64,000 nt of DNA from Syntrophobacterales bacterium (GTDB lineage: Bacteria > Desulfobacterota > Syntrophia > Syntrophales > UBA5619): NCBI GenBank assembly GCA_019429105.1, contig JAHYJE010000013.1:4193-68192 (forward strand). The letters run 5' to 3'. A program made the translations under genes and the position numbers. Below the pieces are notes generated by a model. It did not search any database. It was given only the letters and a program-made list of their open reading frames with translations, and had not been told where the DNA came from. Shown here piece after piece: positions 45,559 through 63,279 of the stretch (its first letter is position 1; every line of letters starts with the position of its first letter).

Positions 45559-46944
45559 CTACATAACCTGGCTGAACATCTCTAAAACATTCAAAGGCAG
45601 CAAGCCCAGAAGAATGATGGCAAGGCTGAAGAGCCAGCAAAGCGCTTTTTCAGAAAAGGACAGTCTCAAAGGTGTTTCATCTTTTATTTCCCGCGAATAG
45701 CTAATGCGAACGAGATTCAGATAATAGAAGACGGAAATTACGGTATTCACTGCGGCAATAATGACGATGGGCAGGTGCCCGGCCCTGAATGCCGTAACAA
45801 AGAGAAAAAACTTGCCGGTAAAACCGCCGGTCGGCGGAATGCCCGCCAGCGAAAAAGCGGCCACCGCCAGCGTAAACGCCAAAAGCGGCGCCCGGCGGGC
45901 CAGCCCGCCCAAATCGGCAATCTTCAGGTTCTCCCCGTTTCTGGAAAGCAGCATCATCACATAGAACAAAGCCAGATTCATGATCAGATAAACGGTTATA
46001 TAATAAGCTACTGCGGCGTTTCCCGCTTTATTGAACGACAAAAGGCCGAGCATCAGGTAGCCTGCATGGGCAATCCCGGAATAGGCAACCAGCCTTTTGA
46101 GGTCCTGCTGAACCAGCCCCACCAGATTGCCGAGGGTCATCGAAAAGGCGGCAAGCACCATTAGCAGCATGGTCAGTTGGGTCAAAGGCAGGCCCGCCAG
46201 CATCGTCAGTCTGATCAAGAGCGCGGCGCCGGCAACCTTCGGCACGGTGGCGATAAACGCCGTCGTTGCGTCGGACGCCCCTTCATAGATGTCCGGCGCC
46301 CAGAAATGGAGGGGAAACAGCGAAAGTTTGAAGAAAAAGGCACTCATCGTCAGGATAATCGCGAGGATGGCAAGCGGCCTGTCGCCGAAAGACGGCATCT
46401 GGGCGACAATATCGGCAAGATAGGTCGAATGAGCCATCCCGTAGAGATACCCCATGCCATACAGCATGATGCCTGTGGAAATAGCACCGAAAAACAAGTA
46501 CTTGATGGCCGCTTCCAGATGAGCTGTCGTCTTGGTGCGGCGCAGCGGCACGATCGCATAAAGGCTGAAGGAGGATATCTCCAGACTGATCAGAATCGAG
46601 ATAAGTTCAACGGAACTGACGAGGATGGAGAGGCCGAGGGTGGAAAGACCCAGAAACATGAAAAACTCCGGCATTTTTTCCACTTCATCTTCCTTGTTGA
46701 ACATGAAGATTACCAAAGCCAGGCCAATGGTCAGAACTAACTTGAAAATCTGCGAAAAACCATCTACCCGGTAGGCGCCGACAAAAAGAAGGCCCTCTGC
46801 ATTCAGGGAAAAGAGCGCAGCAGCCACTCCCCCGACGGCCAGCACCCGGGCCGGCACAAACAGCGATCGCCTCCCCTTTCCCAGCGACAGGAAAAGAAAC
46901 AATACGGAAAAGGAAAGTATGTAAATTTCAGGCAGCAGCGTCAT
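45559..46944 (-). CDS. nuoN: NADH-quinone oxidoreductase subunit N-type antiporter-like subunit
   Basis: 'PLHFWAPDIYEGASDATTAFIATVPKVAG' is the NuoN-type motif. 461 aa, polytopic. Confidence 0.85.
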   Translation of the reverse strand: MTLLPEIYILSFSVLFLFLSLGKGRRSLFVPARVLAVGGVAAALFSLNAEGLLFVGAYRVDGFSQIFKLVLTIGLALVIFMFNKEDEVEKMPEFFMFLGLSTLGLSILVSSVELISILISLEISSFSLYAIVPLRRTKTTAHLEAAIKYLFFGAISTGIMLYGMGYLYGMAHSTYLADIVAQMPSFGDRPLAILAIILTMSAFFFKLSLFPLHFWAPDIYEGASDATTAFIATVPKVAGAALLIRLTMLAGLPLTQLTMLLMVLAAFSMTLGNLVGLVQQDLKRLVAYSGIAHAGYLMLGLLSFNKAGNAAVAYYITVYLIMNLALFYVMMLLSRNGENLKIADLGGLARRAPLLAFTLAVAAFSLAGIPPTGGFTGKFFLFVTAFRAGHLPIVIIAAVNTVISVFYYLNLVRISYSREIKDETPLRLSFSEKALCWLFSLAIILLGLLPLNVLEMFSQVM

Positions 46945-46956
46945 TGGATCAACCCC

Positions 46957-48441
46957 TTAATGGGAAACTTTATCGAGTTGCATGGCAAGATTTACCAGCG
47001 TGTATTCCATTACATTGACGAAAGGACGGGGAAAGATCCCCACCCAAAGCACAAACACGGCAAGCGGCAGCATATAGATTATTTCCCGCAAGTTCATATC
47101 CCTGATATCCCGTTTGTCTTCCCTCCCCCAGGCTATCTGCTTCAACAGTTTCAGCATATAGGCGGCGGCAATGACCGCCCCGACAATGGCAAAGAAGCCG
47201 GCGATCCGGTTTGTGGCAAAGGTTCCAATCAGTACATACAGCTCGCCGACAAAACTGTTCGTCCCCGGAAACGCGAACGAGGAAACGGCGAAGAGGCCGA
47301 AAAAGAACATGTAAATCGGCATAATCTTCCCCAGACCGGCATTATCGTAAATCTGCCGGCTGTGGGTGCGTTCATAGACAATGCCGACCAGCAGGAAAAG
47401 CCCGCCGGTCGTGATCCCGTGGTTGAGCATCTGGAAGAGAGAGCCGATGAAGCCGTAAATCGAAAACGTGAAGATCCCGAGGATGACGAAACCCATGTGG
47501 GCAACACTGGAATAGGCGACCAGCTTCTTCATGTCAGTTTGACTCAGACAGACGAAGCCCCCATAGATGATGCCGATCAGCGACAAAACGATCATCAGCG
47601 GGGCAAAGTAAAAGCTTGCCTGCGGCACAATCGGCAGGCAGAAACGCATAAAACCGTATGTACCCATTTTCAAGAGAATACTGGCGAGAAAAACGCTGCC
47701 GACGGTCGGGGCCTCGGTATGCGCAGCAGGGAGCCAAGTATGAAACGGAAACATCGGCACCTTGATCGCGAAGGCGATGCCGAAGGCCAGAAAGACCCAG
47801 AACTGAAACTGAAAGCTGTAATTTCTGAACATCGCCTCGGGGATGCTGAAGCTGCCGTTTACTAAATAAATCGCAATGATGGCCACCAGCAGAAAAACGC
47901 TCCCGAAGAGCGTGTAGATGAAAAACTTCAGCGACGCATAGTCCTTGTTCGGCCCACCCCAGATCGCAATGAGCAGATACATCGGGATCAGCATCGCCTC
48001 CCAGAAGAAATAAAAGAGGATGAAGTCAAGGGCGCAGAAAACCCCGATCAGGGCCGTCTCCATGATCAAAATTGCAATCATGAACTCCTTCACCCGCGTC
48101 TGAATCGCCTTCCATGAGGATAGCACGGCAATCGGCGAGATAATTGTCGTAAGCAAAACCAGCATGATCGAAATACCGTCAACCCCCAGCGTGTAATTGA
48201 TCTTGTAGGCAGCAATCCAGGAGATATTTTCCCCAAACTGGAAAATGGGGGTCTTGATGTCGAAATTGGCAAAGAGAAATACCGAAACCGCCAGCGTCAA
48301 GAGCGTCGTAATGAAGGAGGCGACCTTGATCATTCTGTCGCTGCGCATAAAGAGGGTGAAGAGCACTCCTGCAAGCGGCAGGAAGATCGTGGTTGATAAA
48401 ACCGGAAATCCAAACGGATTCATTGTCAGGTATGGCAACAT
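46957..48441 (-). CDS. nuoM: NADH-quinone oxidoreductase subunit M-type antiporter-like subunit
   Basis: 'PFHTWLPAAHTEAPTVGSVFLASILLKMGTYGFMRF' is the NuoM-type motif. 494 aa. Confidence 0.85.
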   Translation of the reverse strand: MLPYLTMNPFGFPVLSTTIFLPLAGVLFTLFMRSDRMIKVASFITTLLTLAVSVFLFANFDIKTPIFQFGENISWIAAYKINYTLGVDGISIMLVLLTTIISPIAVLSSWKAIQTRVKEFMIAILIMETALIGVFCALDFILFYFFWEAMLIPMYLLIAIWGGPNKDYASLKFFIYTLFGSVFLLVAIIAIYLVNGSFSIPEAMFRNYSFQFQFWVFLAFGIAFAIKVPMFPFHTWLPAAHTEAPTVGSVFLASILLKMGTYGFMRFCLPIVPQASFYFAPLMIVLSLIGIIYGGFVCLSQTDMKKLVAYSSVAHMGFVILGIFTFSIYGFIGSLFQMLNHGITTGGLFLLVGIVYERTHSRQIYDNAGLGKIMPIYMFFFGLFAVSSFAFPGTNSFVGELYVLIGTFATNRIAGFFAIVGAVIAAAYMLKLLKQIAWGREDKRDIRDMNLREIIYMLPLAVFVLWVGIFPRPFVNVMEYTLVNLAMQLDKVSH

Positions 48442-48494: not shown

Positions 48495-50252
48495 CTATAA
48501 AACGGCCCAGAGAATCGCAAAAAAGAGTAAAAGGGAAAGACCAATGTACGTCTGCACCCTCCCGGTTTGCAATTTTTTAACCAGGGAAGCAACCCCCACG
48601 ACCGAGTAGGCTGTGCCGTCAACTACCCCGTCTATGGCCTTCTGATCAAATGTGTAAGACAGGGAGGCCGTGCCGAAAAGGGACCTCAAGCCCAGCGTTC
48701 GGTAAAGCTCGCCCCAGAAGGAATCAATCGGAGCGATTACCTTCTCGTCGAATTTTATGAAAAGCAGCGTTGCCTTGCGGTAAAAATAATCAATATCGAG
48801 GTTGAGCTTGGCGTCAGGGGAAAGCTTCTTCACCAGCAGATAAAAAACAAGCCCGGTAAAGGAGAGAATCTGCATCATCTCGGAAAGATGGGAGGCGTTG
48901 TACGGATTGAAATCTGCGGAAAAAGGCAGCAGTTGATAAAAGGTCTGCGGAAAAGTTCCGATAAGAAAGCACAAAAGTGAGGTGAGCCCCATCGCCCACA
49001 GCATGTTGGCCGGGGGCTCGTGGGCAGCCTGGTGGTTTCCCGCTTCCTTCCCGAAAAAGGTGAAATAGGTAACCTTCAGCCCCACCGAGAGGAATGTTCC
49101 AATCCCGGCAAGATTAAGCAGCTGCACCAGCCAGATTCTGCCCTCGTGATGAGCCGCGGCGATGATCATCGATTTGCTGACAAAGCCGCTGAAAAAGGGA
49201 AACCCGGAAATCGAGATCGCGCCGATGACGTAAAATATCATGGTAAGCGGCATGTACTTGTACATCCCGCCCAGTTGGGTCATTTTTGAGGTTCCCGTCA
49301 TGTAGAGCACCGCGCCGGCGCCCATGAAGAGCAGCGCCTTGTAAAGGATATGGGCAAAGGCGTGAGCGGCCGCGCCGTTTACCGCCAGCATCGTTCCAAT
49401 GCCCACGCCGGCCACCATGTACCCGACCTGGCTTATGATATGGTAAGCCAGGACGCGCCGGATGTCGTTTTCGATAATCGCGTAAACAACGCCGAAGACC
49501 GTCATCGCCGTTCCCAGAATGGCAAGAATCTCAAAGCCCGAAAATCCCCGGGCCAGAACATAAACCGCGGTCTTGGTAGTAAATGCGCACAGAAACACGG
49601 CCCCTTCAACGCTTGCCTCCGGATAGGCGTCCGGCAGCCAGGCATGCAGCGGAATCACGGCGGCATTGAGGGCAAAACCGGCAAGGATCAGATACTCCGG
49701 CCACGAGGCGCCGGCGGGGGGGATGGCGTTAAAGGCAAAGCTTCCGGTTTTTGTGTAGTAGAACATCATCCCCGCAAAAAGGAGCAAACCCCCGAAGACG
49801 TGGAAGAGCAGATAACGATAACCGGCAGCATCCGATTGCGGACGTTTACCATACCAGATCAAAAAGACGGAGGAAAAGGCCATCGCCTCCCAGAAGATGA
49901 AAAGGGTCAGGTAGTCGCCGGCAAAGACCGCCCCGAGCGAACCGCCCACATAATAGAACCCGGCGATATGATGACCATCTTCGTTTCGGTGCAGGGCATA
50001 AAGCGCGCCAAGAAAGGACATGATCACAAACACCCAGGCAAATACCATGCTGAGTTTGTCAACCCGGCCGAAGAGACCGGCAACACCGAGAAAATTATAC
50101 GCCCCGTAGTTGCCGTAATTGGTCAGGGCAACGGATATTATTGCCGCAGTGGGGATTAACAGAATAAAGACCTTCTTGAGCTTGCCCCGGAGAAACGGCA
50201 GGAACAGGGCCCCAATAAAATAGAATATTGCCGGATGGATCCAGTTATTCAT
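48495..50252 (-). CDS. MrpD/NuoM-type antiporter-like subunit with ~110-aa C-terminal extension ending in one TM helix (paralogue of 56893-58620); occupies the nuoL position
   Basis: 'PLHAWLPDAYPEASVEGAVFLCAFTTKTAVYVL', 'YHIISQVGYMVAG', 'AHILYKALLFMGAG'. The C-terminal tail is '...DIDYFYRKATLLF...TYIGLSLLLFFAILWAVL'. The ATG at 50252 overlaps the stop of the 82-aa ORF (ATGAATAA). Confidence 0.8.
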   Translation of the reverse strand: MNNWIHPAIFYFIGALFLPFLRGKLKKVFILLIPTAAIISVALTNYGNYGAYNFLGVAGLFGRVDKLSMVFAWVFVIMSFLGALYALHRNEDGHHIAGFYYVGGSLGAVFAGDYLTLFIFWEAMAFSSVFLIWYGKRPQSDAAGYRYLLFHVFGGLLLFAGMMFYYTKTGSFAFNAIPPAGASWPEYLILAGFALNAAVIPLHAWLPDAYPEASVEGAVFLCAFTTKTAVYVLARGFSGFEILAILGTAMTVFGVVYAIIENDIRRVLAYHIISQVGYMVAGVGIGTMLAVNGAAAHAFAHILYKALLFMGAGAVLYMTGTSKMTQLGGMYKYMPLTMIFYVIGAISISGFPFFSGFVSKSMIIAAAHHEGRIWLVQLLNLAGIGTFLSVGLKVTYFTFFGKEAGNHQAAHEPPANMLWAMGLTSLLCFLIGTFPQTFYQLLPFSADFNPYNASHLSEMMQILSFTGLVFYLLVKKLSPDAKLNLDIDYFYRKATLLFIKFDEKVIAPIDSFWGELYRTLGLRSLFGTASLSYTFDQKAIDGVVDGTAYSVVGVASLVKKLQTGRVQTYIGLSLLLFFAILWAVL

Positions 50253-50493
50253 AAAAATCCTCTTTTTTGCCAAGAATCGTATGGGCCAGTCCCTTGCTGA
50301 AGCGGACCAGCAGATAACCACCGATTATTGTAAACAAGGTCCAGAAGGCCGGGATTTTATCAACGAAGAAATGGACGTGTTCCCTCGGCAGCAGCACGTC
50401 GAAAATGACCAGCACAACAAGGAACCCGAAAAACAATTTCTTCAGGAGTTCGGCCCTTGCCAGTAAATACTCTATTATTTTAAGTATATTCAT
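50245..50493 (-). CDS. small (82 aa) two-TM membrane protein, conserved partner of the duplicated module
   Basis: Shares the pattern H-x2-(F/W)-x3-IP-x-F-x2-LF-...-K-x-L-...-L-x-K-x-ED-x-Y with the 72-aa ORF at 58610-58828. It is translationally coupled to the downstream gene. Confidence 0.6.
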   Translation of the reverse strand: MNILKIIEYLLARAELLKKLFFGFLVVLVIFDVLLPREHVHFFVDKIPAFWTLFTIIGGYLLVRFSKGLAHTILGKKEDFYE

Positions 50494-50568
50494 AAAACGC
50501 CTCTTGCACCCTTGAGAATGACAATCTTTTTAAAATGCTGCATGCTGACCAGGCTCTTTTTAACAGGG

Positions 50569-52038
50569 CTAAAACAAATTACTGATAAGCTTGACAAAAA
50601 AATCCGGATAAAACCCCAGCAGAACCGAGATCAGCGCTGTCAGCACGAGCGGCACAACCATCGTCAGCGGGGCTTCCTTGATGCCGGAGGTGGTCCAGTT
50701 CTCCTTTTTCCCCTGGAAAAAGGCCTTGATCGTAATCGGCACAAAATACCCGGCGTTCAAAATGCTGCTCGCCAACAAAACGACAACGATGGGGATGTTG
50801 CTTATCTCCAAGGCGCCGTTCAAGAGATACCACTTCGTCACAAATCCGGAAACAGGCGGCACGCCGATCATGCTGAGGGAGGCAAGGGCGAAAGCACCCA
50901 TCGTAAAAGGCATGGCATAGCCAATGCCCGCCATATCGCTGATCTTCCTCTTGTTATGGGCAACGAAGATCGCGCCGGCGCAGAAAAAGAGGGTAATCTT
51001 GCTGAACCCGTGATTGACAATATGGATGACCCCGCCCAGAACGCCGGTGTTGTCGAGAAGCGCCACCCCCAGGATAATGTACGACAACTGGCTCACCGTT
51101 GAATAGGCGAGCCTTGCCTTGAGGTCGTCTTTGGTAAGGGCGATAATGGAGGCCGCCAGGATCGTAAAGGAAACGACATACGCGGTGACAATGCCGATCC
51201 CCAAATCGTTGAGGATCTTCGTCCCGAACGTGGACAGCATGACCCGGGAAATGCAGAACACCCCTGCCTTCACAACGGCCACCGCATGCAAAAGGGCGCT
51301 GACCGGCGTCGGAGCGACCATTGCGGAGGGGAGCCAGTTGTGCAGGGGCATGATCGCCGCCTTGGCAAAACCGGCGATGAAAAGGATATAAGTGACGGTA
51401 ATCCAGATGCCGTCTGAACCGGCGGGAAATATCCCCGTGTGGATATTGTCGGCAAAATCAAGCGTACCGGTCATTATGTAGGTGAGAATGACAGCCGGCA
51501 ACAAAAAACCCTTCGATGTCCCGACGAGATAGACAAGATATTTCTTCGCCCCGGCATAGCCTTCTGCGTCCTGATGGTGGGCCACGAGCGGATAGGTAAA
51601 GAGACTGATAACCTCATAAAAGAGATAGAGGGTAAACAGGCCGCCCGCATAAGACACCCCCTGGGCTCCCAGGATTGCCGCGGCAAAACATGTGTAATAA
51701 CGGGACTGTGCATGTTCCTTGAGGGTTCGCATGTAGCCGATGTTGTAGATGGATGCGAAGATCCAGAGAAACGAGGAGATGATGCCGAAGATAAGCGACA
51801 GGGCGTCCACCCGGAAATTCAGGGAAATACCGGGAGCAATCGCCGAAAGGGTGTAGGTGATCACCCCGCCGTTCCAGACAATCGGAACCATTCCCATAAC
51901 GGCCGCAAAGGTCAGAACGGCCCCGGCTATCGACCAGAATTCCCTGATATTCGGGGTCTTGCGGAAAACCATGATCAGAATGGCAGTCGCAAAAACAATG
52001 CCGATCGGTAAAAGCGGTAATGCGCTATCGATAACCAT
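50569..52038 (-). CDS. NuoL/MrpA-N-type antiporter-like subunit without a long C-terminal lateral-helix extension (paralogue of 58825-60327)
   Basis: 'PLHNWLPSAMVAPTPVSALLHAVAVVKAGVF' is the NuoL/MrpA-type motif. It is only 489 aa long. Confidence 0.8.
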   Translation of the reverse strand: MVIDSALPLLPIGIVFATAILIMVFRKTPNIREFWSIAGAVLTFAAVMGMVPIVWNGGVITYTLSAIAPGISLNFRVDALSLIFGIISSFLWIFASIYNIGYMRTLKEHAQSRYYTCFAAAILGAQGVSYAGGLFTLYLFYEVISLFTYPLVAHHQDAEGYAGAKKYLVYLVGTSKGFLLPAVILTYIMTGTLDFADNIHTGIFPAGSDGIWITVTYILFIAGFAKAAIMPLHNWLPSAMVAPTPVSALLHAVAVVKAGVFCISRVMLSTFGTKILNDLGIGIVTAYVVSFTILAASIIALTKDDLKARLAYSTVSQLSYIILGVALLDNTGVLGGVIHIVNHGFSKITLFFCAGAIFVAHNKRKISDMAGIGYAMPFTMGAFALASLSMIGVPPVSGFVTKWYLLNGALEISNIPIVVVLLASSILNAGYFVPITIKAFFQGKKENWTTSGIKEAPLTMVVPLVLTALISVLLGFYPDFFVKLISNLF

Positions 52039-52041
52039 AGG

Positions 52042-52365
52042 TCAGTACTTCAGCTCCTTCATATCTCCACCCTCGATATGCTGATAGCGCTTTGCAATGA
52101 TGATGATGATGCTCAGCGCAATAGCCGATTCCGCGGCGGCTATTCCCATTATAATAAGCGTGAATGCCAATCCATAGGGGTTTTCCGGAACGATGAACCG
52201 ATTGATCGCAACGATATTTAACCCCGCGCCGTTCATGATCAGTTCCATCGAAACCAGCATCCCGATCAGCGTTCGTCGGTAAAGAAGGCCGGCAATCCCG
52301 CAAAACAGCATAAAAACGGCGACAAACAGATAGATGTTGGAGTTATTGTAAAGTAAATTGCTCAT
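52042..52365 (-). CDS. nuoK: NADH-quinone oxidoreductase subunit K
   Basis: 107 aa, 3 TM. 'RRTLIGMLVSMELIMNGAGLN' and 'GIAAAESAIALSI' form the NuoK pattern. Confidence 0.85.
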   Translation of the reverse strand: MSNLLYNNSNIYLFVAVFMLFCGIAGLLYRRTLIGMLVSMELIMNGAGLNIVAINRFIVPENPYGLAFTLIIMGIAAAESAIALSIIIIIAKRYQHIEGGDMKELKY

Positions 52366-52865
52366 TTGTCACCCCGCGAATTAAGGGAGAGCATAACCGC
52401 CCCGATAATGGCAACAACCAGCAAAAGCGAGATCAACTCAAACGGCAGAATCAGCGTGTCGGTAAACGCACGGCCCACATCCTTAGTCGTCATCAGAAAA
52501 TTCGGCGCCGTTTTGCCCGGCAGATTTGTCAAAACAAACCGGATGAACATGACAACCGAAACCAAGGCGATGACAAGCGCCGAAAGCAATTTTCCGACAG
52601 CCTTGAAATCGTGAGATTTCCTGGAATATTGACCCAGCAGCATAATTGCAAAGGCAATAAGAATGGAGATTGCCCCGACATAGATCAAAATCTGCATCAT
52701 CGCCAGAAAGGCGCTGTTTAGATAGATATAAAGCCCAGCCACGCCGAACATGGCGGTAATCAGACCCAGCATCGCATAGACTATGGAACTTGCAAAGACG
52801 GCCGTCAAGGCCCCTGCCATCGTCACCGCGACGGCGAAAAGGAATATGCTCTCCCCGATGCTCAT
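52362..52865 (-). CDS. nuoJ: NADH-quinone oxidoreductase subunit J
   Basis: 167 aa. 'FLAMMQILIYVGAISILIAFAIML' is the NuoJ pattern. Confidence 0.8.
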   Translation of the reverse strand: MSIGESIFLFAVAVTMAGALTAVFASSIVYAMLGLITAMFGVAGLYIYLNSAFLAMMQILIYVGAISILIAFAIMLLGQYSRKSHDFKAVGKLLSALVIALVSVVMFIRFVLTNLPGKTAPNFLMTTKDVGRAFTDTLILPFELISLLLVVAIIGAVMLSLNSRGDK

Positions 52866-53317
52866 GATGCCTTTTTCCTTTTATCGAATTCCTTCACCAG
52901 ATCGAAATAGAAATCTTCCCTTTTTAACCCCGCAATGTTGAAATCTCCCGAAAAACCGATGGCCTTCGACGGGCAGCTCTCGACACAGATTCCGCACTGG
53001 CTGCAGGTTGTAAAATCAAGCATGTACACAGTTACTCTTTTGCGTTTTTCCCCTTCCCTTTTCTCCCCATCCACCTTTTTTATCGATCCCGAGGGACAGT
53101 TGCGGACGCAGATCCCACAGGCGATGCACATATTTTCCAGCGGGTTTTCAGGACTGGCAAGGAGCTTTATATGACCGCGAAACCGGGGCGTGATCTCAAG
53201 AACCTCACGCGGATATTGAGAGGTCACCACCGGCTGAAAGAAGGATTTGAGCGTTACCCCCATTCCCGCGGCCAGCGAAACCGTACCTTTTATAAAAGAA
53301 GCAGGCGTTACAGTCAT
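52862..53317 (-). CDS. nuoI: NADH-quinone oxidoreductase subunit I (2 x [4Fe-4S])
   Basis: '[12 protein letters not shown]' and '[12 protein letters not shown]'. The ATG at 53317 forms an ATGA overlap with the nuoH stop. Confidence 0.85.
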
Positions 53318-54306
53318 AGCTTCAAAAGCCCTCCTGTTACGAGCAGATTTAAAAAGGCCAGGGGAATGAGCGCCTTCCATGATATATTCAACAACTGATC
53401 AAACCTGACCCGGGGAAACGTCCAGCGGAACCACATCATGACGAAGACAAGGAAGTACGATTTTAAGAGAAACCAGACAATCCCCGGCAGAAAGGGCCCC
53501 TGGTAGCCGCCCAGAAAAAAGGTGACGGTAATAGCGCTGACGATGAACATATTCGTGTATTCCGCGAGGAAAAAAAGCGCAAACATCATCCCCGAATATT
53601 CCGTGTGATACCCGGCAACCAGCTCGCTTTCCGCCTCCGGTAAATCGAACGGGGTACGGTTGGTCTCCGCAACACTCGCAATAAAATAGATGACAAAGGC
53701 AACCGGCTGCAGAACGACGAACCAGATGCCCTTTTGCGCCTCCACAACATCCTTGAGCGACAGGGAGTTGGCCATCATGACCACTGCCAAAAGCGACAGC
53801 AAAAGCGGAATCTCATAGGCGACGCTCTGGGCGATGCTTCTGATCGCCCCAATCAGCGAATATTTGTTGTTGGATCCCCACCCGGCCATCAGAATGGCAA
53901 GTACCGTAAAAGAGGAAAAGGCGAGAATGACGAGAATCCCCACATTTATATCCTTCACCTGCAGGAAGGAATCGAACGGAATTACCACAAAGGCGACCAA
54001 GACCGGAATGAAAATCATGATCGGGCCGAGGTAAAAGATGGGTTTGTCCACATTGCGCGGGGTAAGGATCTCCTTGCCGAGGAGCTTCAACGCGTCGGCA
54101 AGCGGCTGGATAAGACCGTACGGGCCGACCTCTTTGGGACCGATCCGGAGCTGCATGTGCCCCGCCACTTTTCTTTCAGCCCAGGTCAGGATCAGGGCGT
54201 TAAAAACGACAAAGACAAACGCGGCGAGGAGGCCGACCGCAATCTTTACAATTTCCAGATCGAAAAATCGCAGATCAATGCTCATAATCTTCACTATCTG
54301 TTCCAT
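53314..54306 (-). CDS. nuoH: NADH-quinone oxidoreductase subunit H
   Basis: '[34 protein letters not shown]', '[20 protein letters not shown]', '[21 protein letters not shown]'. Confidence 0.9.
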
Positions 54307-54349
54307 TTGGCCATCACATATATAACCTGTCTTCTTGAGACGGGTTTTC

Positions 54350-55924
54350 TTACCGGTCTATTTCCGGGATTACCAGGTCAAGGCTGCCCAAAATCGCAAC
54401 GGCATCGGACAGCAGGTTGCCTTTCGCCAACTCGGGGAAGATCATAAGATTGGAAAAAGAGGGAACCCGCCATTTCATCCGGTAGGGCTTGTCGCTTTCA
54501 TCGCTGACTATGTAGATTCCCAACTCGCCGCGGGGGGTTTCAACAACATGATAGAGATCCCCCTTGCGCGGCTTGAGCTTCTTCGGGGCCTTTTCAACTA
54601 TGAAGGGCCCGTCCGGGAGCCTCTCTATCGCCTGCTCGATGATGTTCAGGGATGTCTCCATTTCCTTGATCCGGATATGGTACATGTCAAGGGCATCGCC
54701 ATTTGTTCCGATGGGAACCTCAAAATCAATTTCCGGATAAGCCGCATAGGGCTCCTTTTTCCGTAAATCCATGCCGATACCGGCGCCGCGTAAAACTGGG
54801 CCGCAGACGGCGTATTTTCGCGCCCTTTCCTTTTCGATGACGCCTATGCCCCTGGTGCGGTTGATAAATATGACATTGCCCCCGACGAGCTTCTCATACA
54901 GCGCAAAACGCCCCCGCATGCGGGCAATGACAGCCTTTGTCCCCAAAATGAAGGCATCATCCACATCGTTGTAAAGGCCGCCGAAGCGGAAATAGCAGTA
55001 GGTCAGCCGGGAGCCGGTGACGGCCTCCAAAACATCCTGGATATTCTCCCTGTCATCGAAGGCGTAGAGAAACGGAGAAAGCCCTCCCAGATCTGCAAGA
55101 TAGGCGCCTATCCACAGGAGATGGCTGCAAATTCTGTTTAATTCCGTGGCAATTACCCGCACGTAATGGGCGCGCGCCGGGACGTCAATCCCGGCCAGTC
55201 GCTCGACGGCCGTAACATATCCCAGGTTAAACGACATCGCCCCCAGATAGTCCATCCGCCCGGTGTTGGGAAGAAACTGGTAATAGGAGCGGTTTTCCGC
55301 CATCTTCTCCTGCATCCGGTGCAGATAACCGAGTACCGGATAAGCATCCTCGATATACTCGCCATCCATTTTCAGGACAACCCGCAAAACGCCGTGCGTG
55401 CTCGGATGCTGGGGGCCCATATTAATAAATAACGAGTCATCCCGCAGCGCCGGAGAATATGAATTCAGCTCTTGCCTGTCCTTCTCGGAGACCGGTATTT
55501 TCTCTTTGCGCAACGGATAGAAATCAATTCCGTCATGCAGGAACAGGTAGGTCAGCCCCGGGTGACCTTCGAAACGAACACCGTAAAACTCGTGGATCTC
55601 CCGTTCATACCAGTAAGCGCAGGCATAAATTTTTGAAAGCGTCGGAGCCGCAGGCTGGGAGGGATCGAGCTTCAGGGTAACCTTTACCTTGCAGAGGGAG
55701 GAGTGAATGCTGAAAATATAGACAAGCTCGAGATAGTCTTTGTAGTCAACGCCAAGCTCAACGGCGAGATAAAAATGCCGTTCATCAAAAAAACCCGCCA
55801 CCTCCAGGATGTCTTTCGCCTTTAAATCTACCGAAAGGTGATAGCCGCATTGGGGATAGCTTTCCTCGATTATCGTCAGATCGGCAAATGCCGCCTGCAG
55901 CTCAGCTTTTGTTTTATCTACCAT
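54350..55924 (-). CDS. nuoCD: fused NADH-quinone oxidoreductase subunits C and D
   Basis: The N-terminal ~150 aa are NuoC-like ('[19 protein letters not shown]'). The remainder is NuoD-like ('[14 protein letters not shown]', '[10 protein letters not shown]', '[12 protein letters not shown]', C-terminus '[10 protein letters not shown]'). There are no [NiFe] CxxC motifs. Confidence 0.9.
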
Positions 55925-56373
55925 CGCTCTACCGGTCCCGGGAATCTTCTTTTCCCTGTTATCTTTTCCTCGAGTTTCAGAAAACCTTCGAGCAGCCCTT
56001 CCGGCCGCGGCGGACAGCCAGGAACATATACATCTACCGGAACAAGTTTATCAACTCCCTCGATCAAGTTATACTGCCCCTCGAAAACAAACGGGCCGCC
56101 GGAAATGGCGCAATTGCCCATCGCAATCACCCATTTCGGCGAAGGCATCTGGTCATAAAGGGTGACTAAGACGGGCGCCATCTTCTTCGTTACCGTGCCT
56201 GAGACGATCATCAAATCGGCCTGGCGGGGGGAGGGTCTGAAAACACCCGCTCCGAACCGGTCAATATCAAAACGGGCCATCGCGGCAGACATCATCTCTA
56301 TTGCGCAACAGGCGAGTCCGAAGGTCACCGGCCACAGAGAATTCGCCCTTGCCAGATCGAGCACCTTGTCCAA
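55918..56373 (-). CDS. nuoB: NADH-quinone oxidoreductase subunit B (N2 cluster cysteines present)
   Basis: '[14 protein letters not shown]', '[10 protein letters not shown]', 'VPGCPPRPE'. Confidence 0.9.
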
Positions 56374-56384
56374 AACCGCAAAAC

Positions 56385-56789
56385 TTACAGGTGGGAGATT
56401 TTCCTTTTCCAGGTAAACACCCCTTTCCCCCAGGCATAAACAACAGCCAAGGCAAGAATTACAACAAAGGAAAGCAATGCGTAAAATTCATGAATCCTCT
56501 CTCCCTTGGCATAACTTAGCGCAACGGGGAAAAGATAGAGAACGTCAACATCAAAGGCAATAAAGATAAGCGCGTAAACATAATAATGGATGCCGTATTT
56601 TATCCGGGCGCTGCCGAAGGGAGGGATCCCGCATTCGTACGTATTATGGGTATTTTTGCCCCTGGTTTTCGAAGCAAGAAGGTGGGGGAGAATGATGGAA
56701 AAAAGCGCAAATAATACTGCAACGAGGCTGAAAATGGCTACTGGTGTAAAGTCTTCTAAATTAGTCATATAAAACTCAATTCCAATCAA
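56385..56789 (-). CDS. nuoA: NADH-quinone oxidoreductase subunit A
   Basis: 134 aa, 3 TM. '[15 protein letters not shown]...[13 protein letters not shown]' is the NuoA pattern. Confidence 0.85.
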
Positions 56790-56829
56790 GCTGCATCTGA
56801 ACCGCTCAACGGCTCACTGAACTTGGCGC

Positions 56830-56858
56830 TCTTTAACAATGATGCCATTCGTTGTCAA
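56830..56858 (-). promoter_or_regulatory. candidate internal sigma-70 promoter in front of nuoA (TTGACA-N17-TAAAGA)
   Basis: The minus strand reads TTGACAacgaatggcatcattgtTAAAGA. It lies in the only gap over 100 nt (56790-56892) within the 18-kb array. Confidence 0.3.
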
Positions 56859-56892
56859 GATTTTTTTCACTTTAAGTGCAAAAGGCAACTGC

Positions 56893-58620
56893 TCACAACT
56901 GCATGAGCCAGCCCCAGCCGGCAAGCAACAGATAAGATAAAAGCGTGACAGCAATCAAAATTCCTACCGCCGGTCGGTAATCGTCCGGATCATAGTCTCT
57001 GGCATCGGCCTTGCCCGAAAAGAAAGAAACCGGGTTTTTGCCGATAACCACAAGTCTGCGGACTATGCCATTGATGCTCTTTTCCGCCCTATTGAAAAGC
57101 GCTTCGACATTCACGGTAAAAATTCTTTCCACCAGTTGCGCCGGCTTGCGGTAGAACCAGTCCACATCGAGGGCTATTTCCGCTTTTCCGGCAACCTTTT
57201 TCCGATAAATCCAGAAGGCGACAAACGTAAAAATCAAGATCTGAGACGTTTCGGTCAGATGGATAAGCGTGTATGGCGCAAAGGGAATGTGAAAAGGCAG
57301 CATCTCGTAGAGAAGATTCGGCATGACCCCGAATAATATACAGAAAAAAGCGGCTATCGTCATGGCGAAATACATATTCACACGCAAAGGAATTGGCGAC
57401 AAGCCCCGGTCCTTGCCAAACCACGTATAATAAGGCAACTTCAGGCCGATGGACAAAAAGGTCCCCACGGAAGCGAGTGTCAGCAAGAGCCAGACCATTG
57501 TGTAATGCGCCTCTCCCGCTGCCGCGATGACCATTGATTTGCTGATGAACCCGTTGAAAAGGGGAAAGCCGGAAATGGAAAACGCGCCGATCATATAAAG
57601 CCATAAAATAAGGGGCTGTTTTTTCACCAGACCGCCCAACTCGGTCATTTTGCTTTTCCCTGTGGTATAGATGACGCTTCCCGCTCCCATAAAAAGAAGC
57701 GCTTTGTAGAGGATGTGGCTAAACGCGTGGGCTGTAGCGCCGTTAATGGCCAACTGCGTGCCGATCCCGGCGCCGGCAACCATGTATCCCACCTGACTGA
57801 TGATGTGATAAGACAGGATGCCGCGGATGTCGTTTGCCAGAACGGCAAAGACAACGCCGTAAAGCGCCATGAAAACGCCGAGAAAAACAAGAATTTCCCA
57901 GCCGGGGAATATTCTCAGCAAGACATAAACGGCGGTTTTCGTAGTCAGGGCGCTCAAAAAAACAGCCCCCGTCACCGTCGCTTTCGGATAGGCATCGGGG
58001 AGCCAGGCATGTAAAGGTACAACCGCCGCATTTAACGCGACTCCACCCAAAATCAGCCAGGAGGAAAGGGCGTTGCCGGGGGGAAGCTGTTCAATCAGGA
58101 TTTGCCCTGTCTCCGCGACGTGCATAATGATTCCGGATAGTAAAAGTGCGCCGCCAAAGAGATGAAAGATAAGATAGCGCATCCCCGCCCGTCCGGATTC
58201 CTCAGTTTTACTCGCCCAGACCAGGTATGCGGAGGGAATGCTCATCAGCTCCCAGAAGACAAAGAGAGTAAAGAAATCACCGGCAAACGTAACCCCTATG
58301 GCGCCCGCTGCATACAGCAGGGCCGCCGCCTGTTCCGCTTTTTCCCGGACATGAAACGCAAAAAGCGCGCCGATGAACGTAATCAAGGCAAATATCGTCC
58401 CGAAGACACGACTCAAACTGTCCATCTTGAACAGTACGAGCTGATAATCCATGAACTTCAAGGTGAGATTTATCCCGACCGGCGCCAACCAGACGGCAAG
58501 CAGGGCGAGTAACGGAATGAGCAGCGTGAGATAAGCGCGAGACAGTCTTGGCAAGAAGGGAAGGAGCATGGCGCCGGCAACCATGATGATAAACGGGGCT
58601 ACGGTTGTTTCAATTCCCAT
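56893..58620 (-). CDS. MrpD/NuoM-type antiporter-like subunit with ~110-aa C-terminal extension ending in one TM helix (paralogue of 48495-50252)
   Basis: 'PLHAWLPDAYPKATVTGAVFLSALTTKTAVYVL', 'YHIISQVGYMVAG', 'SHILYKALLFMGAG'. The tail is 'DVDWFYRKPAQLV...VGILIAVTLLSYLLLAGWGWLMQL'. The ATG at 58620 overlaps the 72-aa ORF by 11 nt. Confidence 0.8.
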   Translation of the reverse strand: MGIETTVAPFIIMVAGAMLLPFLPRLSRAYLTLLIPLLALLAVWLAPVGINLTLKFMDYQLVLFKMDSLSRVFGTIFALITFIGALFAFHVREKAEQAAALLYAAGAIGVTFAGDFFTLFVFWELMSIPSAYLVWASKTEESGRAGMRYLIFHLFGGALLLSGIIMHVAETGQILIEQLPPGNALSSWLILGGVALNAAVVPLHAWLPDAYPKATVTGAVFLSALTTKTAVYVLLRIFPGWEILVFLGVFMALYGVVFAVLANDIRGILSYHIISQVGYMVAGAGIGTQLAINGATAHAFSHILYKALLFMGAGSVIYTTGKSKMTELGGLVKKQPLILWLYMIGAFSISGFPLFNGFISKSMVIAAAGEAHYTMVWLLLTLASVGTFLSIGLKLPYYTWFGKDRGLSPIPLRVNMYFAMTIAAFFCILFGVMPNLLYEMLPFHIPFAPYTLIHLTETSQILIFTFVAFWIYRKKVAGKAEIALDVDWFYRKPAQLVERIFTVNVEALFNRAEKSINGIVRRLVVIGKNPVSFFSGKADARDYDPDDYRPAVGILIAVTLLSYLLLAGWGWLMQL

Positions 58621-58828
58621 CGTAGTAGTCCTCCCGCTTGGACAACAAAATCTTGCCGAGAAATTTTGCAAAAATGATTATCAACAGACAACCGAAAAAA
58701 CCGAACAGGGCGAAGAAACCGGGAATTGCACTCCACCACCCATGGAGCTCATCGCCGGTCGTCATAATACCTCCCGCGATGGAAGCCGCGCCGCCAATTC
58801 CCAGAAGAGCCCAGCGCAATTTATTCAT
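58610..58828 (-). CDS. small (72 aa) two-TM membrane protein, paralogue of 50245-50493
   Basis: '...HGWWSAIPGFFALFGFFGCLLIIIFAKFLGKILLSKREDYY'. It has an ATGA overlap with the upstream gene and an 11-nt overlap with the downstream gene. Confidence 0.6.
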   Translation of the reverse strand: MNKLRWALLGIGGAASIAGGIMTTGDELHGWWSAIPGFFALFGFFGCLLIIIFAKFLGKILLSKREDYYDGN

Positions 58829-60327
58829 GATCCGGTTACCCCCAAGATGCTGCCGCTTACCTGAACGGCAAGACTATAGAAATGCAGAAACAGATCGGGA
58901 CGAATCCCCCACAAGATCGATAAAAATGCCGTAACAGCAAGAGGAATAACAATAGCCAAGGAAGCCTCTCCCCTGAGAAACGGCGCGGCAGGGCTCTTGA
59001 AAAAGGCCCGATAAACAACCGGGGCAAAATATCCGGCATTGAGAATGCCGCTCAGCAACAGTAGTGCCAGCGGAACAACGGAACCGGCCTGCAAAGATCC
59101 CAGTCCCAGTTGCCATTTACTGACAAAGCCGTTGAGCGGCGGGACTCCCGCCAAGCCGATCGCGCCGATAGTAAAGGCGCCCATCGTCCAGGGCATCACC
59201 CGGCCAATGCCATCGAGTTCACTGATTTTTTCCTTATGGTGCGTCACATAAATTGCCCCGGCGCAAAAAAAGAGCGTGATTTTCATAGTCGCATGGCTGG
59301 CTATATGGAGCAGACTGCCGACAAGCGACGCAGGTGAAAGCAGCGCCGCGCCGAGAACAATATAGGACAAGTGCCCGACTGTCGAATAGGCCAAACGATG
59401 CTTCAGGTTATCCTGCCTGAAGGCAAGCAGTGAGGCAAAAATGATCGTAACGCCGGCAAAGGCCGCCAATATGATATTAAGATCGAATTGTCGCATCAAT
59501 TGCGGCCCGAAAACAAAACCGACAACCCTCACAACTCCGAATACCCCGGATTTGACCACCGCGACGGCGTGCAGCAGGGCGCTAACCGGGGTCGGAGCTA
59601 CCATCGCCGCCGGAAGCCAACTATGCAGCGGCATAATGGCGGCCTTTACCCCCACGCCGCCGATAAAAAGGGCAAAAAGAACTAAAACCGTACCCGGCGA
59701 CAGCAAGGCATCCCCAAACATCCCCCCCGCTTTGAAATCGAGAGTTCCAGCCAAACGGTATGTCCAGGCCGTCGCCGCGATCAACAGCACCCCCGCGGTA
59801 AGGGTATAGACGAGATACTTACGGCCCGCCGCTATGGCCACAGGAGTTTCCTTGTGAATAACCAGCGGATAGGTGGCAATGGTCAATATCTCGTAAAAAA
59901 AGATGAATGTCAGCAGGTTGGCGGCAAAGGCGACGCCGATGGTCGCGGAAAGGCAGATCGCGAAGCTTGCAAAATACCGGGTCTGCTTATGCTCATTCAA
60001 ACCCCGCACGTAGCCGATGGAGTAAATGGAAGTCAACATCCAGAGACCGGAGGCGATCAACGCAAAAAAAATCCCAAAGGAGTCTGCTTTCAGCGCCAGC
60101 GAGATGCCGGGAGATATTTCCCAGAATGTGAATTCAGCCACCTTTCCTGCCAAAACGCCCGGCAACAGCAGAAGCACAAACGAAAATTTGGCAACGCTTG
60201 CCGCAAGCGTCCAGAATTCCCTTATAAAAACATGTCTGGAACTCAAGGCAATCAGCAGAGCGGCTGCCAGCGAAACCAAAACCGCACAGAGCGGCAGCAA
60301 AGATCTGTAAATTTCAGGATCGGTCAT
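58825..60327 (-). CDS. NuoL/MrpA-N-type antiporter-like subunit without a long C-terminal extension (paralogue of 50569-52038)
   Basis: 'PLHSWLPAAMVAPTPVSALLHAVAVVKSGVF', 'KITLFFCAGAIY'. 500 aa. Confidence 0.8.
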   Translation of the reverse strand: MTDPEIYRSLLPLCAVLVSLAAALLIALSSRHVFIREFWTLAASVAKFSFVLLLLPGVLAGKVAEFTFWEISPGISLALKADSFGIFFALIASGLWMLTSIYSIGYVRGLNEHKQTRYFASFAICLSATIGVAFAANLLTFIFFYEILTIATYPLVIHKETPVAIAAGRKYLVYTLTAGVLLIAATAWTYRLAGTLDFKAGGMFGDALLSPGTVLVLFALFIGGVGVKAAIMPLHSWLPAAMVAPTPVSALLHAVAVVKSGVFGVVRVVGFVFGPQLMRQFDLNIILAAFAGVTIIFASLLAFRQDNLKHRLAYSTVGHLSYIVLGAALLSPASLVGSLLHIASHATMKITLFFCAGAIYVTHHKEKISELDGIGRVMPWTMGAFTIGAIGLAGVPPLNGFVSKWQLGLGSLQAGSVVPLALLLLSGILNAGYFAPVVYRAFFKSPAAPFLRGEASLAIVIPLAVTAFLSILWGIRPDLFLHFYSLAVQVSGSILGVTGS

Positions 60328-60340: not shown

Positions 60341-61855
60341 TTACATTCCCGCAGGAATGATGTTCTGGATAATCCCCTTCACAATAGCCGAGTTGAACAA
60401 GCCGATAAAGATAAGGGAAAAAGAAAGGACAACTACCGGAATGGTCAGTGAAAAATTCTCTCCTCCGGCAATGGTCACTTCGTTCGTTGCATTTTCCGGG
60501 GCGTTCCCTGCCTCAGTAGCACGGTCCGGCGGCGACTTGAGATAGATATTTTCAAGGATCCGGAAAAAATAAACGGCATTCAACAGGCTGCTGGCCATAA
60601 TCACCGCCAGAAAAAGCCAGTTTCCCTTATCCACTGCGCCCAACGCCAGGTACCACTTGCTGAAGAAACCGGCTGTGGGCGGCAGGCCGATCATCGAAAG
60701 AGCGGCTAACGTAAAGGCGGCCGTTGTCCAGGGCAGTTTTTTCCGGCATTCGGAGTCCATCTTTTCGATATCGGAATGACCCAGCTTTTTTCTCAGGTTG
60801 GCGGCAACAAGAAACAATGAGCCTTTCATGAAGGCATGATTCAGAATATGCAGCACCGCGCCGATATAGCCCAGCGGATTGGCCAGCCCTATCCCCAGAC
60901 CGATATAACCGATTTGCGCGACACTGCTATAGGCAAGCATCCTCTTTAGCTCTTTCTGGGCGATCGCCATAACGGAACCGTAGATAATGCCTGCTGCCGA
61001 AAGCCAGGCAATAAAATCGGCAATGGGGAACGCCTTATCGACAAAAGGAGCGCCAAAGACAAAAAACATTATTCGGATAATTACGTACGCGCCTATTTTA
61101 GTGCCGATTGGGGCGATCAGCGCCGAAGAGGTGGAAGGGGCATAGGTATATGAGTCGGGCAGCCAGCCGTGGAGCGGAAAAATCGCCATCTTGATACCGA
61201 TGCCTGTCACCATGAGCAAAAGGGCAACGTTGACAGCAGAATTCGGACCAAGCAGGGGAAGGATCGCCTTCACATCGGCCATATTCAGCGAACCGGTTGC
61301 CATGTAAAGAAATCCTATGCCGATAAGGTAGAAGGAAGCGCCAATTGTTCCCATGATCAGGTACCGAAAGGCTGCAACCGGCGCCTTCTTTTCGCCGATG
61401 CCGATCAGACCATAGGCCGAAAGCGAAAATATTTCTATAAAGACATAGAGATTGAATAGATCGCCCGTGATGATTATGCCGTTTGCGCCGCAGAGAAAAA
61501 GCAGGACCAGGGCATAATACGGAACCGGCTTCTCGTTAATTTCCGACGTCTGCAGGCCGCTTGAATGCCAGATAACAAAAAGGGCAACAACATTCACCAC
61601 CAGGGCAATAAACGCCGAAAGGGGATCAAGGACATACTCGATGCCGAGGGGAGGAATCCAGCCGCCGAAATGATAAGAGATGCGGGCGCCGCTGAGAATC
61701 CTGGTAAGATTGTAACAAGCCACGACAACAGAGAAAAAAGAAGCCGTCGCCGCAAGGGGAAACGCCAGTTTCTCTTTTTTAAGCGCCAGCACCGGGATCG
61801 AGATTGCGGTTGCCAGAAGCGCCAGAGGAATGAGGGCGGGGGAATTCGGGATCAT
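60341..61855 (-). CDS. mrpD: MrpD/MbhH-type antiporter-like subunit
   Basis: 'PLHGWLPDSYTYAPSTSSALIAPIGTKIGAYVIIR'. 504 aa. It directly follows the MrpC-like gene. Confidence 0.8.
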   Translation of the reverse strand: MIPNSPALIPLALLATAISIPVLALKKEKLAFPLAATASFFSVVVACYNLTRILSGARISYHFGGWIPPLGIEYVLDPLSAFIALVVNVVALFVIWHSSGLQTSEINEKPVPYYALVLLFLCGANGIIITGDLFNLYVFIEIFSLSAYGLIGIGEKKAPVAAFRYLIMGTIGASFYLIGIGFLYMATGSLNMADVKAILPLLGPNSAVNVALLLMVTGIGIKMAIFPLHGWLPDSYTYAPSTSSALIAPIGTKIGAYVIIRIMFFVFGAPFVDKAFPIADFIAWLSAAGIIYGSVMAIAQKELKRMLAYSSVAQIGYIGLGIGLANPLGYIGAVLHILNHAFMKGSLFLVAANLRKKLGHSDIEKMDSECRKKLPWTTAAFTLAALSMIGLPPTAGFFSKWYLALGAVDKGNWLFLAVIMASSLLNAVYFFRILENIYLKSPPDRATEAGNAPENATNEVTIAGGENFSLTIPVVVLSFSLIFIGLFNSAIVKGIIQNIIPAGM

Positions 61856-62229
61856 GGCTGCGCTTTCATCCGTTCGATCAGGAGCGGTTCGTCCAGGGTC
61901 TTATAGTGACGATAAATGACAATGGCCAATGCGAAGGCGACCCCGCTTGTAGCCACGCCGACGACGATGGCGGTAAGCATCAGGCAATGCTGCAGCGGAC
62001 TGATATAGCGCGCTGCATCGGCAGCGCCGATCGCCGGATCGAGTACAGGCACTGTCGCTGCCCATTTGGCAGCGCTTGCCACATAGAACATGATGATCGA
62101 AACCTGGAAAATGGTCATCCCGATCAGCTTCTTGACGAGATTGTTCTTGAAAATCATCCCATACATGCCGATCAACATGAGAAGAATAACGCCCCAGTAG
62201 GTATAGTGCCCCCGGATAAAATCAATCAT
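61852..62229 (-). CDS. mrpC: MrpC/MnhC (NuoK-like) subunit
   Basis: 'GMYGMIFKNNLVKKLIGMTIFQ' and 'SPLQHCLMLTAIVVGVATSGVAFAL' form the MnhC pattern. The ATG at 62229 overlaps the upstream stop (ATGATTGA). Confidence 0.8.
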   Translation of the reverse strand: MIDFIRGHYTYWGVILLMLIGMYGMIFKNNLVKKLIGMTIFQVSIIMFYVASAAKWAATVPVLDPAIGAADAARYISPLQHCLMLTAIVVGVATSGVAFALAIVIYRHYKTLDEPLLIERMKAQP

Positions 62230-63037: not shown

Positions 63038-63279
63038 TCCCCGCTCCTTCTTGATGTCTGGAAAATCAGGACAACAAAAAATATTCCCGTTATCCCGGCG
63101 CCGACCACCGCCTCGGTAAACCCTACGTCAATAGCCCCCATCACCGCGTAAAGCAGGGCCGATACAAAGCTGAAGACACTGAGCGTTACCACCGCCGTCA
63201 GGAGATCCTTGACCGTCAACGAAATAACCGCCGAAACAAGCATAAAAACAGCCATGATCGTCTCTATTTCCCAGTACAT
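63034..63279 (-). CDS. MbhD/DUF4040-like small subunit (MrpA C-terminal-region homologue)
   Basis: 81 aa, 3 TM. 'GAIDVGFTEAVVGAGITG' fits the MbhD/DUF4040 pattern. Confidence 0.65.
   Translation of the reverse strand: MYWEIETIMAVFMLVSAVISLTVKDLLTAVVTLSVFSFVSALLYAVMGAIDVGFTEAVVGAGITGIFFVVLIFQTSRRSGD

Follow-up and report, generated by a model that had tools for sequence, protein, structure and literature searches.

Two related three-gene antiporter modules in a Syntrophobacterales bacterium: a probable green-type complex I without NADH-input module beside an Mrp-type antiporter

Complex I variants with extra pumps bear on the number of ions moved per electron pair and on uphill electron transfer in anaerobes living near the thermodynamic limit. 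The 'green complex I' of Rhizobium and Sinorhizobium (Degli Esposti & Martinez-Romero, 2016), as presented in two citing papers (PMC9040806; PMC7415380), carries two Mrp-type antiporter-like genes in place of nuoL between nuoK and nuoM. Equally, Complex_I_3 of 'Ca. Manganitrophaceae' possesses two MrpD-like subunits for NuoL with the lateral helix on MrpD2, and a 26-amino-acid insert in this helix occurs where a second NuoM is present (Yu et al., 2022; PMC9040806). In Nitrospira, the 2M-type complex I likewise has a fourth pump unit, which has been proposed to raise the ion/electron ratio in the service of reverse electron flow (Chadwick et al., 2018, as cited in PMC9040806), and among the Mrp antiporters themselves a group 3 with two mrpD genes has been delineated, with the orders mrpCD1D2EFGAB in Aphanothece and mrpFGBCDDAE in Microbacterium (Ito et al., 2017; PMC5703873). 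Here, a window of 64,000 nucleotides from a Syntrophobacterales bacterium (contig JAHYJE010000013.1 of assembly GCA_019429105.1, positions 4,193 to 68,192) is analysed, which encodes two trios, each consisting of an antiporter-like subunit X, a small membrane protein s and a second antiporter-like subunit Y. The interpretation favoured, with a probability of about 0.7, is that an Mrp-type antiporter stands beside a green-type complex I without NADH-input module, in which nuoL has been replaced by an Mrp-derived trio. Both systems including their trios are encoded on the minus strand, to which all window coordinates below refer unless stated otherwise; the listed coordinates have been checked.

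Module 1 consists of X1 (58825..60327, 500 amino acids), the stop codon of which overlaps the start of s1 (ATGA), s1 (58610..58828, 72 amino acids, two hydrophobic segments) and Y1 (56893..58620, 575 amino acids). Module 2 consists of X2 (50569..52038, 489 amino acids), s2 (50245..50493, 82 amino acids) and Y2 (48495..50252, 585 amino acids) and is located between nuoK and nuoM. The initial annotation of the sequence had described two intact trios of the same order, one of them in the place of nuoL; both observations hold, all the motifs quoted are present, and tblastn and Pfam searches of the window detected no canonical full-length nuoL elsewhere. Full-length matches to Y2 with 51-52% identity occur on 114 plasmid records, mostly megaplasmids of Sinorhizobium, Rhizobium and Ensifer, with residues 1-582 being 51-52% identical to genes on 97 rhizobial megaplasmids, and on S. 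medicae pMl3 the genes follow the order nuoJ, nuoK, X (487 amino acids), a 'hypothetical protein' (84 amino acids), Y (586 amino acids), nuoM, nuoN, nuoA-G. In the window as in the rhizobial enzyme, two Mrp-type genes stand for nuoL, the helix resides on the second subunit (MrpD2) and a small open reading frame (ORF) lies in between, with full-length identities of about 51-52% for the orthologs of X and of Y. Because of the rhizobial orthology of Y2 and the trio order on pMl3, module 2 is, as judged from homology and synteny, the published green complex I arrangement, and no novel type of enzyme is added by this locus. The rhizobial locus nuoJK-X-s-Y-MN-ABCD-EFG differs by its nuoEFG genes and by nuoC and nuoD, annotated as separate genes in S. 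medicae, whereas in the window nuoA-K come first, nuoCD is fused into a 524-amino-acid gene, nuoEFG is lacking, and the second trio belongs to an Mrp cluster situated directly upstream. The simpler order nuoA-B-CD-H-I-J-K-X-s-Y-M-N is common to many non-rhizobial loci, and the rearranged order with nuoEFG may be particular to the rhizobia and not part of what defines the type. Three features described below, a universal small subunit, an asparagine in the seventh transmembrane helix (TM7) of Y and a tail matched to the host complex, were found in none of the published accounts consulted.

The green type is far more widespread than the rhizobia. A scan of species-representative genomes yielded at least 583 confirmed relatives and a metagenome scan 584, from which 160 loci were kept and annotated against the window proteins. 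About 100 of these 160 loci show the order nuoK-X-s-Y-nuoM(-nuoN), with hosts in the Desulfobacterota (Syntrophales, Desulfovibrionales, Desulfobulbales, Desulfobacterales, Geobacteraceae), Verrucomicrobiota, Acidobacteriota, Zetaproteobacteria, Gammaproteobacteria (Ectothiorhodospiraceae), Alphaproteobacteria (Telmatospirillum) and Nitrospirota (Dissulfurispiraceae). In about 30 others, including archaeal contigs, the trio ends an Mrp cluster of the type mrp(E)FG-mbhD/E-mnhB-mrpC-mrpD-X-s-Y without nuo genes. The survey of other genomes suggested earlier thus found the trio in both Nuo and Mrp loci of several phyla. Individual loci deviate from these orders. An uncultured Desulfocapsa (L027) shows nuoK-nuoM-X-s-Y-nuoN, and a metagenomic Mrp cluster (L116) is permuted to s-Y-...-mrpG-mbhD-mnhB-mrpC-mrpD-X, which puts X and Y far apart at its two ends. 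Locus L093 encodes a canonical 682-amino-acid nuoL (1887-3932, minus strand) and nuoM (245-1873, minus strand) divergent from an adjoining stand-alone Mrp X-s-Y cluster, so that a normal NuoL and an Mrp-type trio can share one genome.

Subunit Y displays the layout of NuoL over its whole length. The NuoL model TIGR01974 (NDH_I_L) aligns residues 63-581 of Y2 to model positions 79-625 of 630, NF005141 likewise aligns near its whole length, and Y2 aligns end to end with NdhF (6hum_F) and mycobacterial NuoL (8e9g_L). The spacing between TM15 and TM16 comprises 88 amino acids in Y2, 87 in the canonical NuoL of L093 and 80 in Escherichia coli NuoL, and the tail motifs W.E.Y, FD...IDG.VDG and QTG..Q.Y line up with NuoL, such that Y2 shares overall layout, helix length, motif series and final anchor helix with NuoL, ND5 and NdhF. 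A profile constructed from the tails of Nuo-context Y proteins alone matches the last approximately 75 residues of NdhF, NuoL and ND5 (expectation values, E, of 5e-7 to 4e-5), with no match to MrpA among solved structures; the Y2 tail as a single sequence gave borderline matches only (E about 0.3), and a profile of Mrp-context Y tails had no relevant match among solved structures. In an AlphaFold2 model of Y2 (predicted local distance difference test, pLDDT, 84.6; predicted template modelling score 0.81), based on a 120-sequence alignment, TM15 (453-473) is followed by a continuous helix at 489-562 (74 residues, about 111 Å) and by TM16 (566-584); a 37-sequence alignment of at least 71% identity had given a pLDDT of 61 and an unusable tail. 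A fold search with the model retrieved MrpA, NdhF and NuoL as best matches over the full length, and the amphipathicity of the lateral helix equals that of the E. coli helix. The tail of Y2 is consequently not unrelated low-complexity sequence, being amphipathic and homologous to the NdhF/NuoL C-termini, and the earlier assignment of the lateral helix to Y and not to X is borne out. The designation of Y as 'D-type' with a C-terminal helix extension, on the other hand, stands only for the extension, as the protein has the full NuoL layout.

Y2 nevertheless departs from canonical NuoL. Its TIGR01974 score of 180.7 bits (Y1, 111.2) is under the cut-off of 407.5, and the GPTPVSAL motif and the equivalent of His254 are absent from Y2 and present in X instead. 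Both Y1 (719.5 bits) and Y2 (726.0 bits) exceed the 564-bit cut-off of NF009310 (PRK12668, 'Na+/H+ antiporter subunit D'). Standard pipelines call X and Y 'Na+/H+ antiporter subunit D', and such complex I operons then seem to lack NuoL.

Subunit X complements this picture. Aligned with E. coli NuoL, NuoM and NuoN (NC_000913.3), X possesses the TM5 glutamate, the TM7 lysine, the His254 equivalent, the TM8 lysine, His334, His338, Lys342 and the TM12 lysine, which together make up the full NuoL/MrpA-class set and which are all kept in more than 130 of 134 X sequences from the fetched loci. The 'L-type' label given at first sight is therefore appropriate, as every NuoL/MrpA-class residue, including the equivalents of H254, H334, H338 and K342, is retained. 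The protein ends right after the 14-helix core, and neither X1 nor X2 has the segment of TM15, lateral helix and TM16. The nearest solved relative of X2 is MbhH (E 1.8e-45), followed by NuoL and MrpA. Against NF006236 (PRK08375.1-1; cut-off 663 bits) X2 scores above with 759.1 bits and X1 below with 571.5 bits, X1 being below the cut-off of NF005561 as well (584 versus 718 bits), and with TIGR01974 both X2 (192.4 bits) and X1 (159.9 bits) stay under 407.5. By its alignment, X is an additional complete NuoL/MrpA-class core without tail. As in the MBH/MBS complexes, where MbhH is the best solved relative of X, a NuoL-class core without its own helix is followed by a small membrane-protein gene; in the window, however, the helix is located on a second full-size subunit and not on a small MbhI protein, and s has no detectable similarity to MbhI or to any solved chain.

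The small protein s is a constant part of the module, its gene being detected, by a hidden Markov model built from the fetched loci, between X and Y in all 128 adjacent pairs (128/128), in Mrp and Nuo contexts. The consensus comprises two hydrophobic segments, a His-rich loop, the motif IPGFWA.FG and a C-terminal EDYYD. The family has 568 members at E <=0.001 in a library of 1.84 billion representatives, and the best 150 of these 568 are all short (56-148 amino acids). No Pfam or NCBIfam family covers s, a profile of 30 diverse s proteins found no solved relative (best E 1.4, unrelated chains), and the source annotations label it 'hypothetical protein'. The distal end of green-type complex I is accordingly a three-gene unit common to a class of Mrp antiporters and always including an unannotated small membrane protein; we know of no structure of the X-s-Y module. 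Protein s2 probably helps to hold X2 to Y2, and a tether at the X/Y boundary would be our guess. Thirteen long ORFs were considered as natural X-s fusions, twelve of which are out-of-frame stop-to-stop ORFs in genomes of high guanine-plus-cytosine content. The only ORF apparently in frame (L079, 8215-9921, from a Desulfuromonadales metagenome-assembled genome, MAG) is a possible true fusion; it stops before the EDYYD motif, and an assembly error is possible.

These properties of Y, X and s bear on the proposal of the initial annotation that the function of a single NuoL is redistributed over three polypeptides, the trio being functionally one NuoL. A NuoL/MrpA-class core and a lateral helix do occur on different polypeptides, and s follows directly after X, with translational coupling in module 1, as a fission product would. 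Yet each of the two large subunits, X and Y, is an entire antiporter-like protein of 14 helices with a Glu/Lys set of its own, and Y by itself can be aligned with NuoL in full length. No similarity of s to a segment of NuoL, MrpA or MbhI could be detected, and the apparent X-s fusions elsewhere are out-of-frame ORF artefacts. We regard a split NuoL as quite unlikely. Because Y has the NuoL layout throughout, NuoL appears to have been replaced by Y, X and s instead of being divided in three, and because X is an additional full 14-helix core, the enzyme would gain a fourth pump.

The antiporter core of Y keeps the TM5 glutamate, the TM8 lysine, His334, His338, Lys342 and the TM12 lysine. At the site of the TM7 lysine, paired with E144 in E. 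coli (K229) and present in every other aligned antiporter-like subunit, an asparagine is found (N196 in Y2, N197 in Y1), as in 161 of 162 Y sequences. The TM5 Glu/TM7 Lys pair is consequently complete in X and reduced to the glutamate in Y. Because of this invariant asparagine the input gate of Y cannot work as in current models, and Y may not pump at all. The clamp-bearing subunit thus dispenses with a lysine regarded as indispensable in current coupling models, and the TM7 asparagine and the small subunit provide concrete targets for mutagenesis and cryo-electron microscopy.

The tail of Y tracks the host complex and not the core phylogeny. After the conserved DxDWFYRK, Nuo-context tails extend for 100-109 amino acids and bear the NuoL signature, whereas Mrp-context tails, mostly 85-92 amino acids long, are devoid of it. 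In the Mrp-context tails, an invariant Pro is separated by about 36 residues from an invariant Asn-Pro, after which come a loop and the last transmembrane helix; Y1 has this shorter Mrp-type tail (helix, NP, loop, final transmembrane helix). The rule holds even for a group of Mrp-context genes nested in the Nuo clade. Within the Nuo clade, the Mrp-context Y proteins of L040, L052, L133 and L064 have tails of about 108 amino acids with 'FFIDGPARL...WQLTG', which resembles a decayed remnant of the motif FD..IDG...QTG of the NuoL type, as expected if the pair came from complex I. The Y protein of a metagenome contig (L148; Ga0213870_1007904, 338-1786) has a tail of 130 amino acids in place of 100-103, longer by 28 amino acids and by about one subunit width, with an internal repeat of D..VID..VN, an excess that agrees with the 26-amino-acid insert reported for two-NuoM enzymes (Manganitrophus MrpD2; PMC9040806). 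Helix length would seem to scale with how many subunits lie on the proximal side of Y, namely one (MrpD), two (NuoM and NuoN) or three.

From this scaling we infer that Y adjoins NuoM and that X is positioned outside the clamp at the distal tip. In the complex I of the window, Y2 would occupy the place of NuoL beside NuoM, its 74-residue helix extending over NuoM and NuoN and anchored by TM16, with X2 beyond Y2 at the distal end. Conversely, Y could be distal and X, as the true replacement of the NuoL core, could stand beside NuoM with the helix of Y reaching back over X and NuoM, since X has exactly the residue set of the NuoL class that normally faces NuoM and the missing TM7 lysine might be better tolerated at a terminal position. 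This order appears unlikely, as the helix of Y equals in length and motifs that of canonical NuoL, which spans two subunits; a three-subunit span would need about 26 more residues, as in the enzymes with an extra NuoM, and the helical part is only about 36 amino acids long in the Mrp clusters, which have one subunit less on the proximal side.

With Y2 next to NuoM, the presumably quinone-linked complex I encoded by nuoA-B-CD-H-I-J-K-X2-s2-Y2-M-N would contain four pump units (NuoN, NuoM, Y2, X2) versus three and might translocate about five ions per two electrons. A higher ion-to-electron ratio would suit reverse electron flow to a low-potential carrier, driven by the proton-motive force, in a syntroph; in the alternative direction, forward oxidation of ferredoxin would drive pumping. 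A fourth pump unit would be shared with the 2M-type complex I, in which, as cited in PMC9040806, a second NuoM supplies the additional unit and the canonical NuoL persists, its helix elongated; in the window NuoL is replaced, nuoM is single and the helix is not elongated, its spacing of 88 amino acids comparing with 80-87 in canonical NuoL. Complex_I_3 differs by two NuoM, five pumps and the 26-amino-acid insert, while a single NuoM and a helix of canonical length are encoded in the window.

The two trios are related over all three genes, with 46% identity over 488 amino acids for X1/X2 (E 2e-140), 32% over 50 amino acids for s1/s2 (E 2e-9) and 49% over 542 amino acids for Y1/Y2 (E 4e-170; all BLASTP). 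At the DNA level only patchy identity of 66-77% is found, and third codon positions at identical residues match in 43-47%, which together point to an old split. The conserved channel residues are kept in both copies, both modules are intact, and conserved orthologs of each copy with 50-98% identity exist in many genomes; neither copy is therefore decaying. That the trio duplication is old with both copies intact, as first noticed by eye, agrees with these values. It did not take place in this genome, since X1 and Y1 fall among genes of stand-alone Mrp clusters in other organisms, and X2 and Y2 among those of Nuo clusters. The trios are ancient paralogs, representing an Mrp lineage and a Nuo lineage of one module family. 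For the notion that one module is a redundant, decaying leftover of a recent duplication, nothing speaks except that two copies exist; with intact copies retaining all conserved residues, synonymous sites near saturation, and orthologs in many genomes with the two copies in different clades, its probability is practically negligible.

The trees of X and Y (neighbour-joining) agree. In a bootstrapped tree of the Y core with the tail removed, Y1 belongs to a 100% clade with Mrp-context genes and Y2 to a 99% clade of Syntrophales Nuo-context genes, while the Mrp-context group L040, L052 and L079 is nested within a 99-100% clade of Nuo-context genes. As read from these topologies, the X-Y pair has switched host complex more than once. 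The concept of a transferable building block that adds two pumps, put forward with the initial annotation, is supported by the agreement of the two trees and by the nested Mrp-context group.

The second system of the window, upstream of the complex I genes, would be an Mrp-type cation/proton antiporter with a split MrpA, a 'group 3-like' organization and three antiporter-like subunits, in the order mrpE(cut)-F-G-mbhD-mbhE-mnhB-mrpC-mrpD-X1-s1-Y1. Apart from mrpE, the Mrp genes preceding the trio were identified by Pfam. Of mrpE, only the 3' end lies within the window (63878..64000); it was recognized by tblastn with MrpE of the relative L098 (37% identity over 35 amino acids, E 6.6e-4), and mrpE precedes mrpF in the relatives L098 and L093. 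There follow mrpF (63596..63865; PF04066 MrpF_PhaF, E 5e-12), mrpG (63264..63599; PF03334, E 3e-28), two pieces of the MrpA C-terminal domain as genes of their own, MbhD-like (63034..63279; PF13244 MbhD, E 7e-17) and MbhE-like (62723..63037; PF20501 MbhE, E 1.6e-12), mnhB/mrpB (62222..62662; PF04039 MnhB, E 1e-27), the NuoK-like mrpC (61852..62229, start uncertain, ORF to 62286; PF00420 Oxidored_q2, E 4e-17) and the MrpD-like antiporter subunit 'D504' of 504 amino acids (60341..61855; PF00361, E 6e-62) with complete canonical Glu/Lys residues. At the level of gene layout, irregular order, several MrpD-like genes and a separate MrpA C-terminal domain are shared with the group 3 Mrp antiporters; three antiporter-like genes together with s set the window cluster apart.

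The gap between Y1 and nuoA (56790..56892) contains a perfect TTGACA -35 box and, over the stop codon of Y1, a weak hairpin, both consensus matches only, and possibly holds the promoter of the nuo cluster itself; promoter and terminator scans of the whole cluster were near background. The complex I genes comprise nuoA (56385..56768; PF00507), nuoB (55918..56373; PF01058), the fused nuoCD (54350..55924; PF00329 and PF00346), nuoH (53314..54306; PF00146, E 5e-127), nuoI with two [4Fe-4S] clusters (52862..53317; called as 151 amino acids in the relative L001), nuoJ (52362..52865; PF00499), nuoK (52042..52365; PF00420) and, after the trio, nuoM (46957..48441; TIGR01972, 588 bits) and nuoN (45559..46944; TIGR01770, 339 bits). 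Read by eye, the NuoD part keeps the usual 12-residue motif and the GYLH motif and has no hydrogenase cysteines. A tblastn search with all seven antiporter-like proteins found no further such gene in the 64 kb, and Pfam scans detected neither canonical nuoL nor nuoEFG among the remaining large ORFs.

The nearest database relatives are Syntrophales MAGs, one of which is 98% identical with the same gene order (L001/L002). The Mrp-then-Nuo tandem was encountered among the annotated loci only in the window, in this relative and in L010 (Syntrophaceae), and our literature search found no paper on Mrp-Nuo tandems in Syntrophales. With a gap of just about 100-125 bp on a single strand, a tandem conserved in L001, L002 and L010 and an order mrpEFG-mbhD-mbhE-mnhB-mrpC-mrpD...nuoB-CD-H-I that mirrors the mbhA-N operon, the at least 22 genes could encode one machine, an Mrp module physically joined to complex I, collinear with mbh/mbs and equipped with seven antiporter-like subunits. 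The nearest relatives of Y1 among the annotated loci (L083, L086, L109; 64-70% identity) are, however, not followed by nuoA, about 20 other Mrp clusters equally have no downstream nuo genes, and in an S. aciditrophicus MAG (L003), a close Nuo relative, the 3.4 kb upstream of nuoA are free of Mrp genes. As K/J-like subunits and a clamp-bearing Y are present separately in either half, and the promoter-like elements lie in the gap, a single machine is considered very unlikely. Slim, too, is the chance that the Mrp cluster and the green-type complex I of this Syntrophaceae lineage share a transcript and form, or function as, a single coupled machine, which would link redox-driven pumping directly to Na+/H+ exchange.

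Several points weigh against the interpretation of a separate Mrp-type antiporter and a green-type complex I with an additional pump. The closeness of the two clusters on the same strand and the retention of the tandem in relatives are compatible with co-transcription or functional coupling. Y is devoid of the TM7 lysine found in every characterised antiporter-like subunit, and the count of one additional pump could be wrong. The physical order X-Y-M-N derives entirely from helix length and motif conservation; the Y2 model, predicted as an isolated chain, superposes on NuoL at a root-mean-square deviation of about 15 Å and is uninformative on helix orientation. Furthermore, deep nodes of the tree are unsupported, and the definition of the 'green complex I' used here is the one given in the citing papers PMC9040806 and PMC7415380.

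The remainder of the window consists of housekeeping genes. Right after nuoN, a TetR-family regulator is encoded divergently (44923-45543, plus strand), and beyond it lie a PilS-like histidine kinase with PAS domain (43102-44796) and a sigma-54 response regulator (41687-43123). The same three neighbours are present in the 98% relative L001, and they could control the nuo cluster. Further away, an ORF of 645 amino acids (10849-12786) combines an HMGL-like domain of the pyruvate carboxyltransferase type with a Cache/PDC sensor domain, an unusual pairing that may represent two genes merged by the mechanical ORF call.

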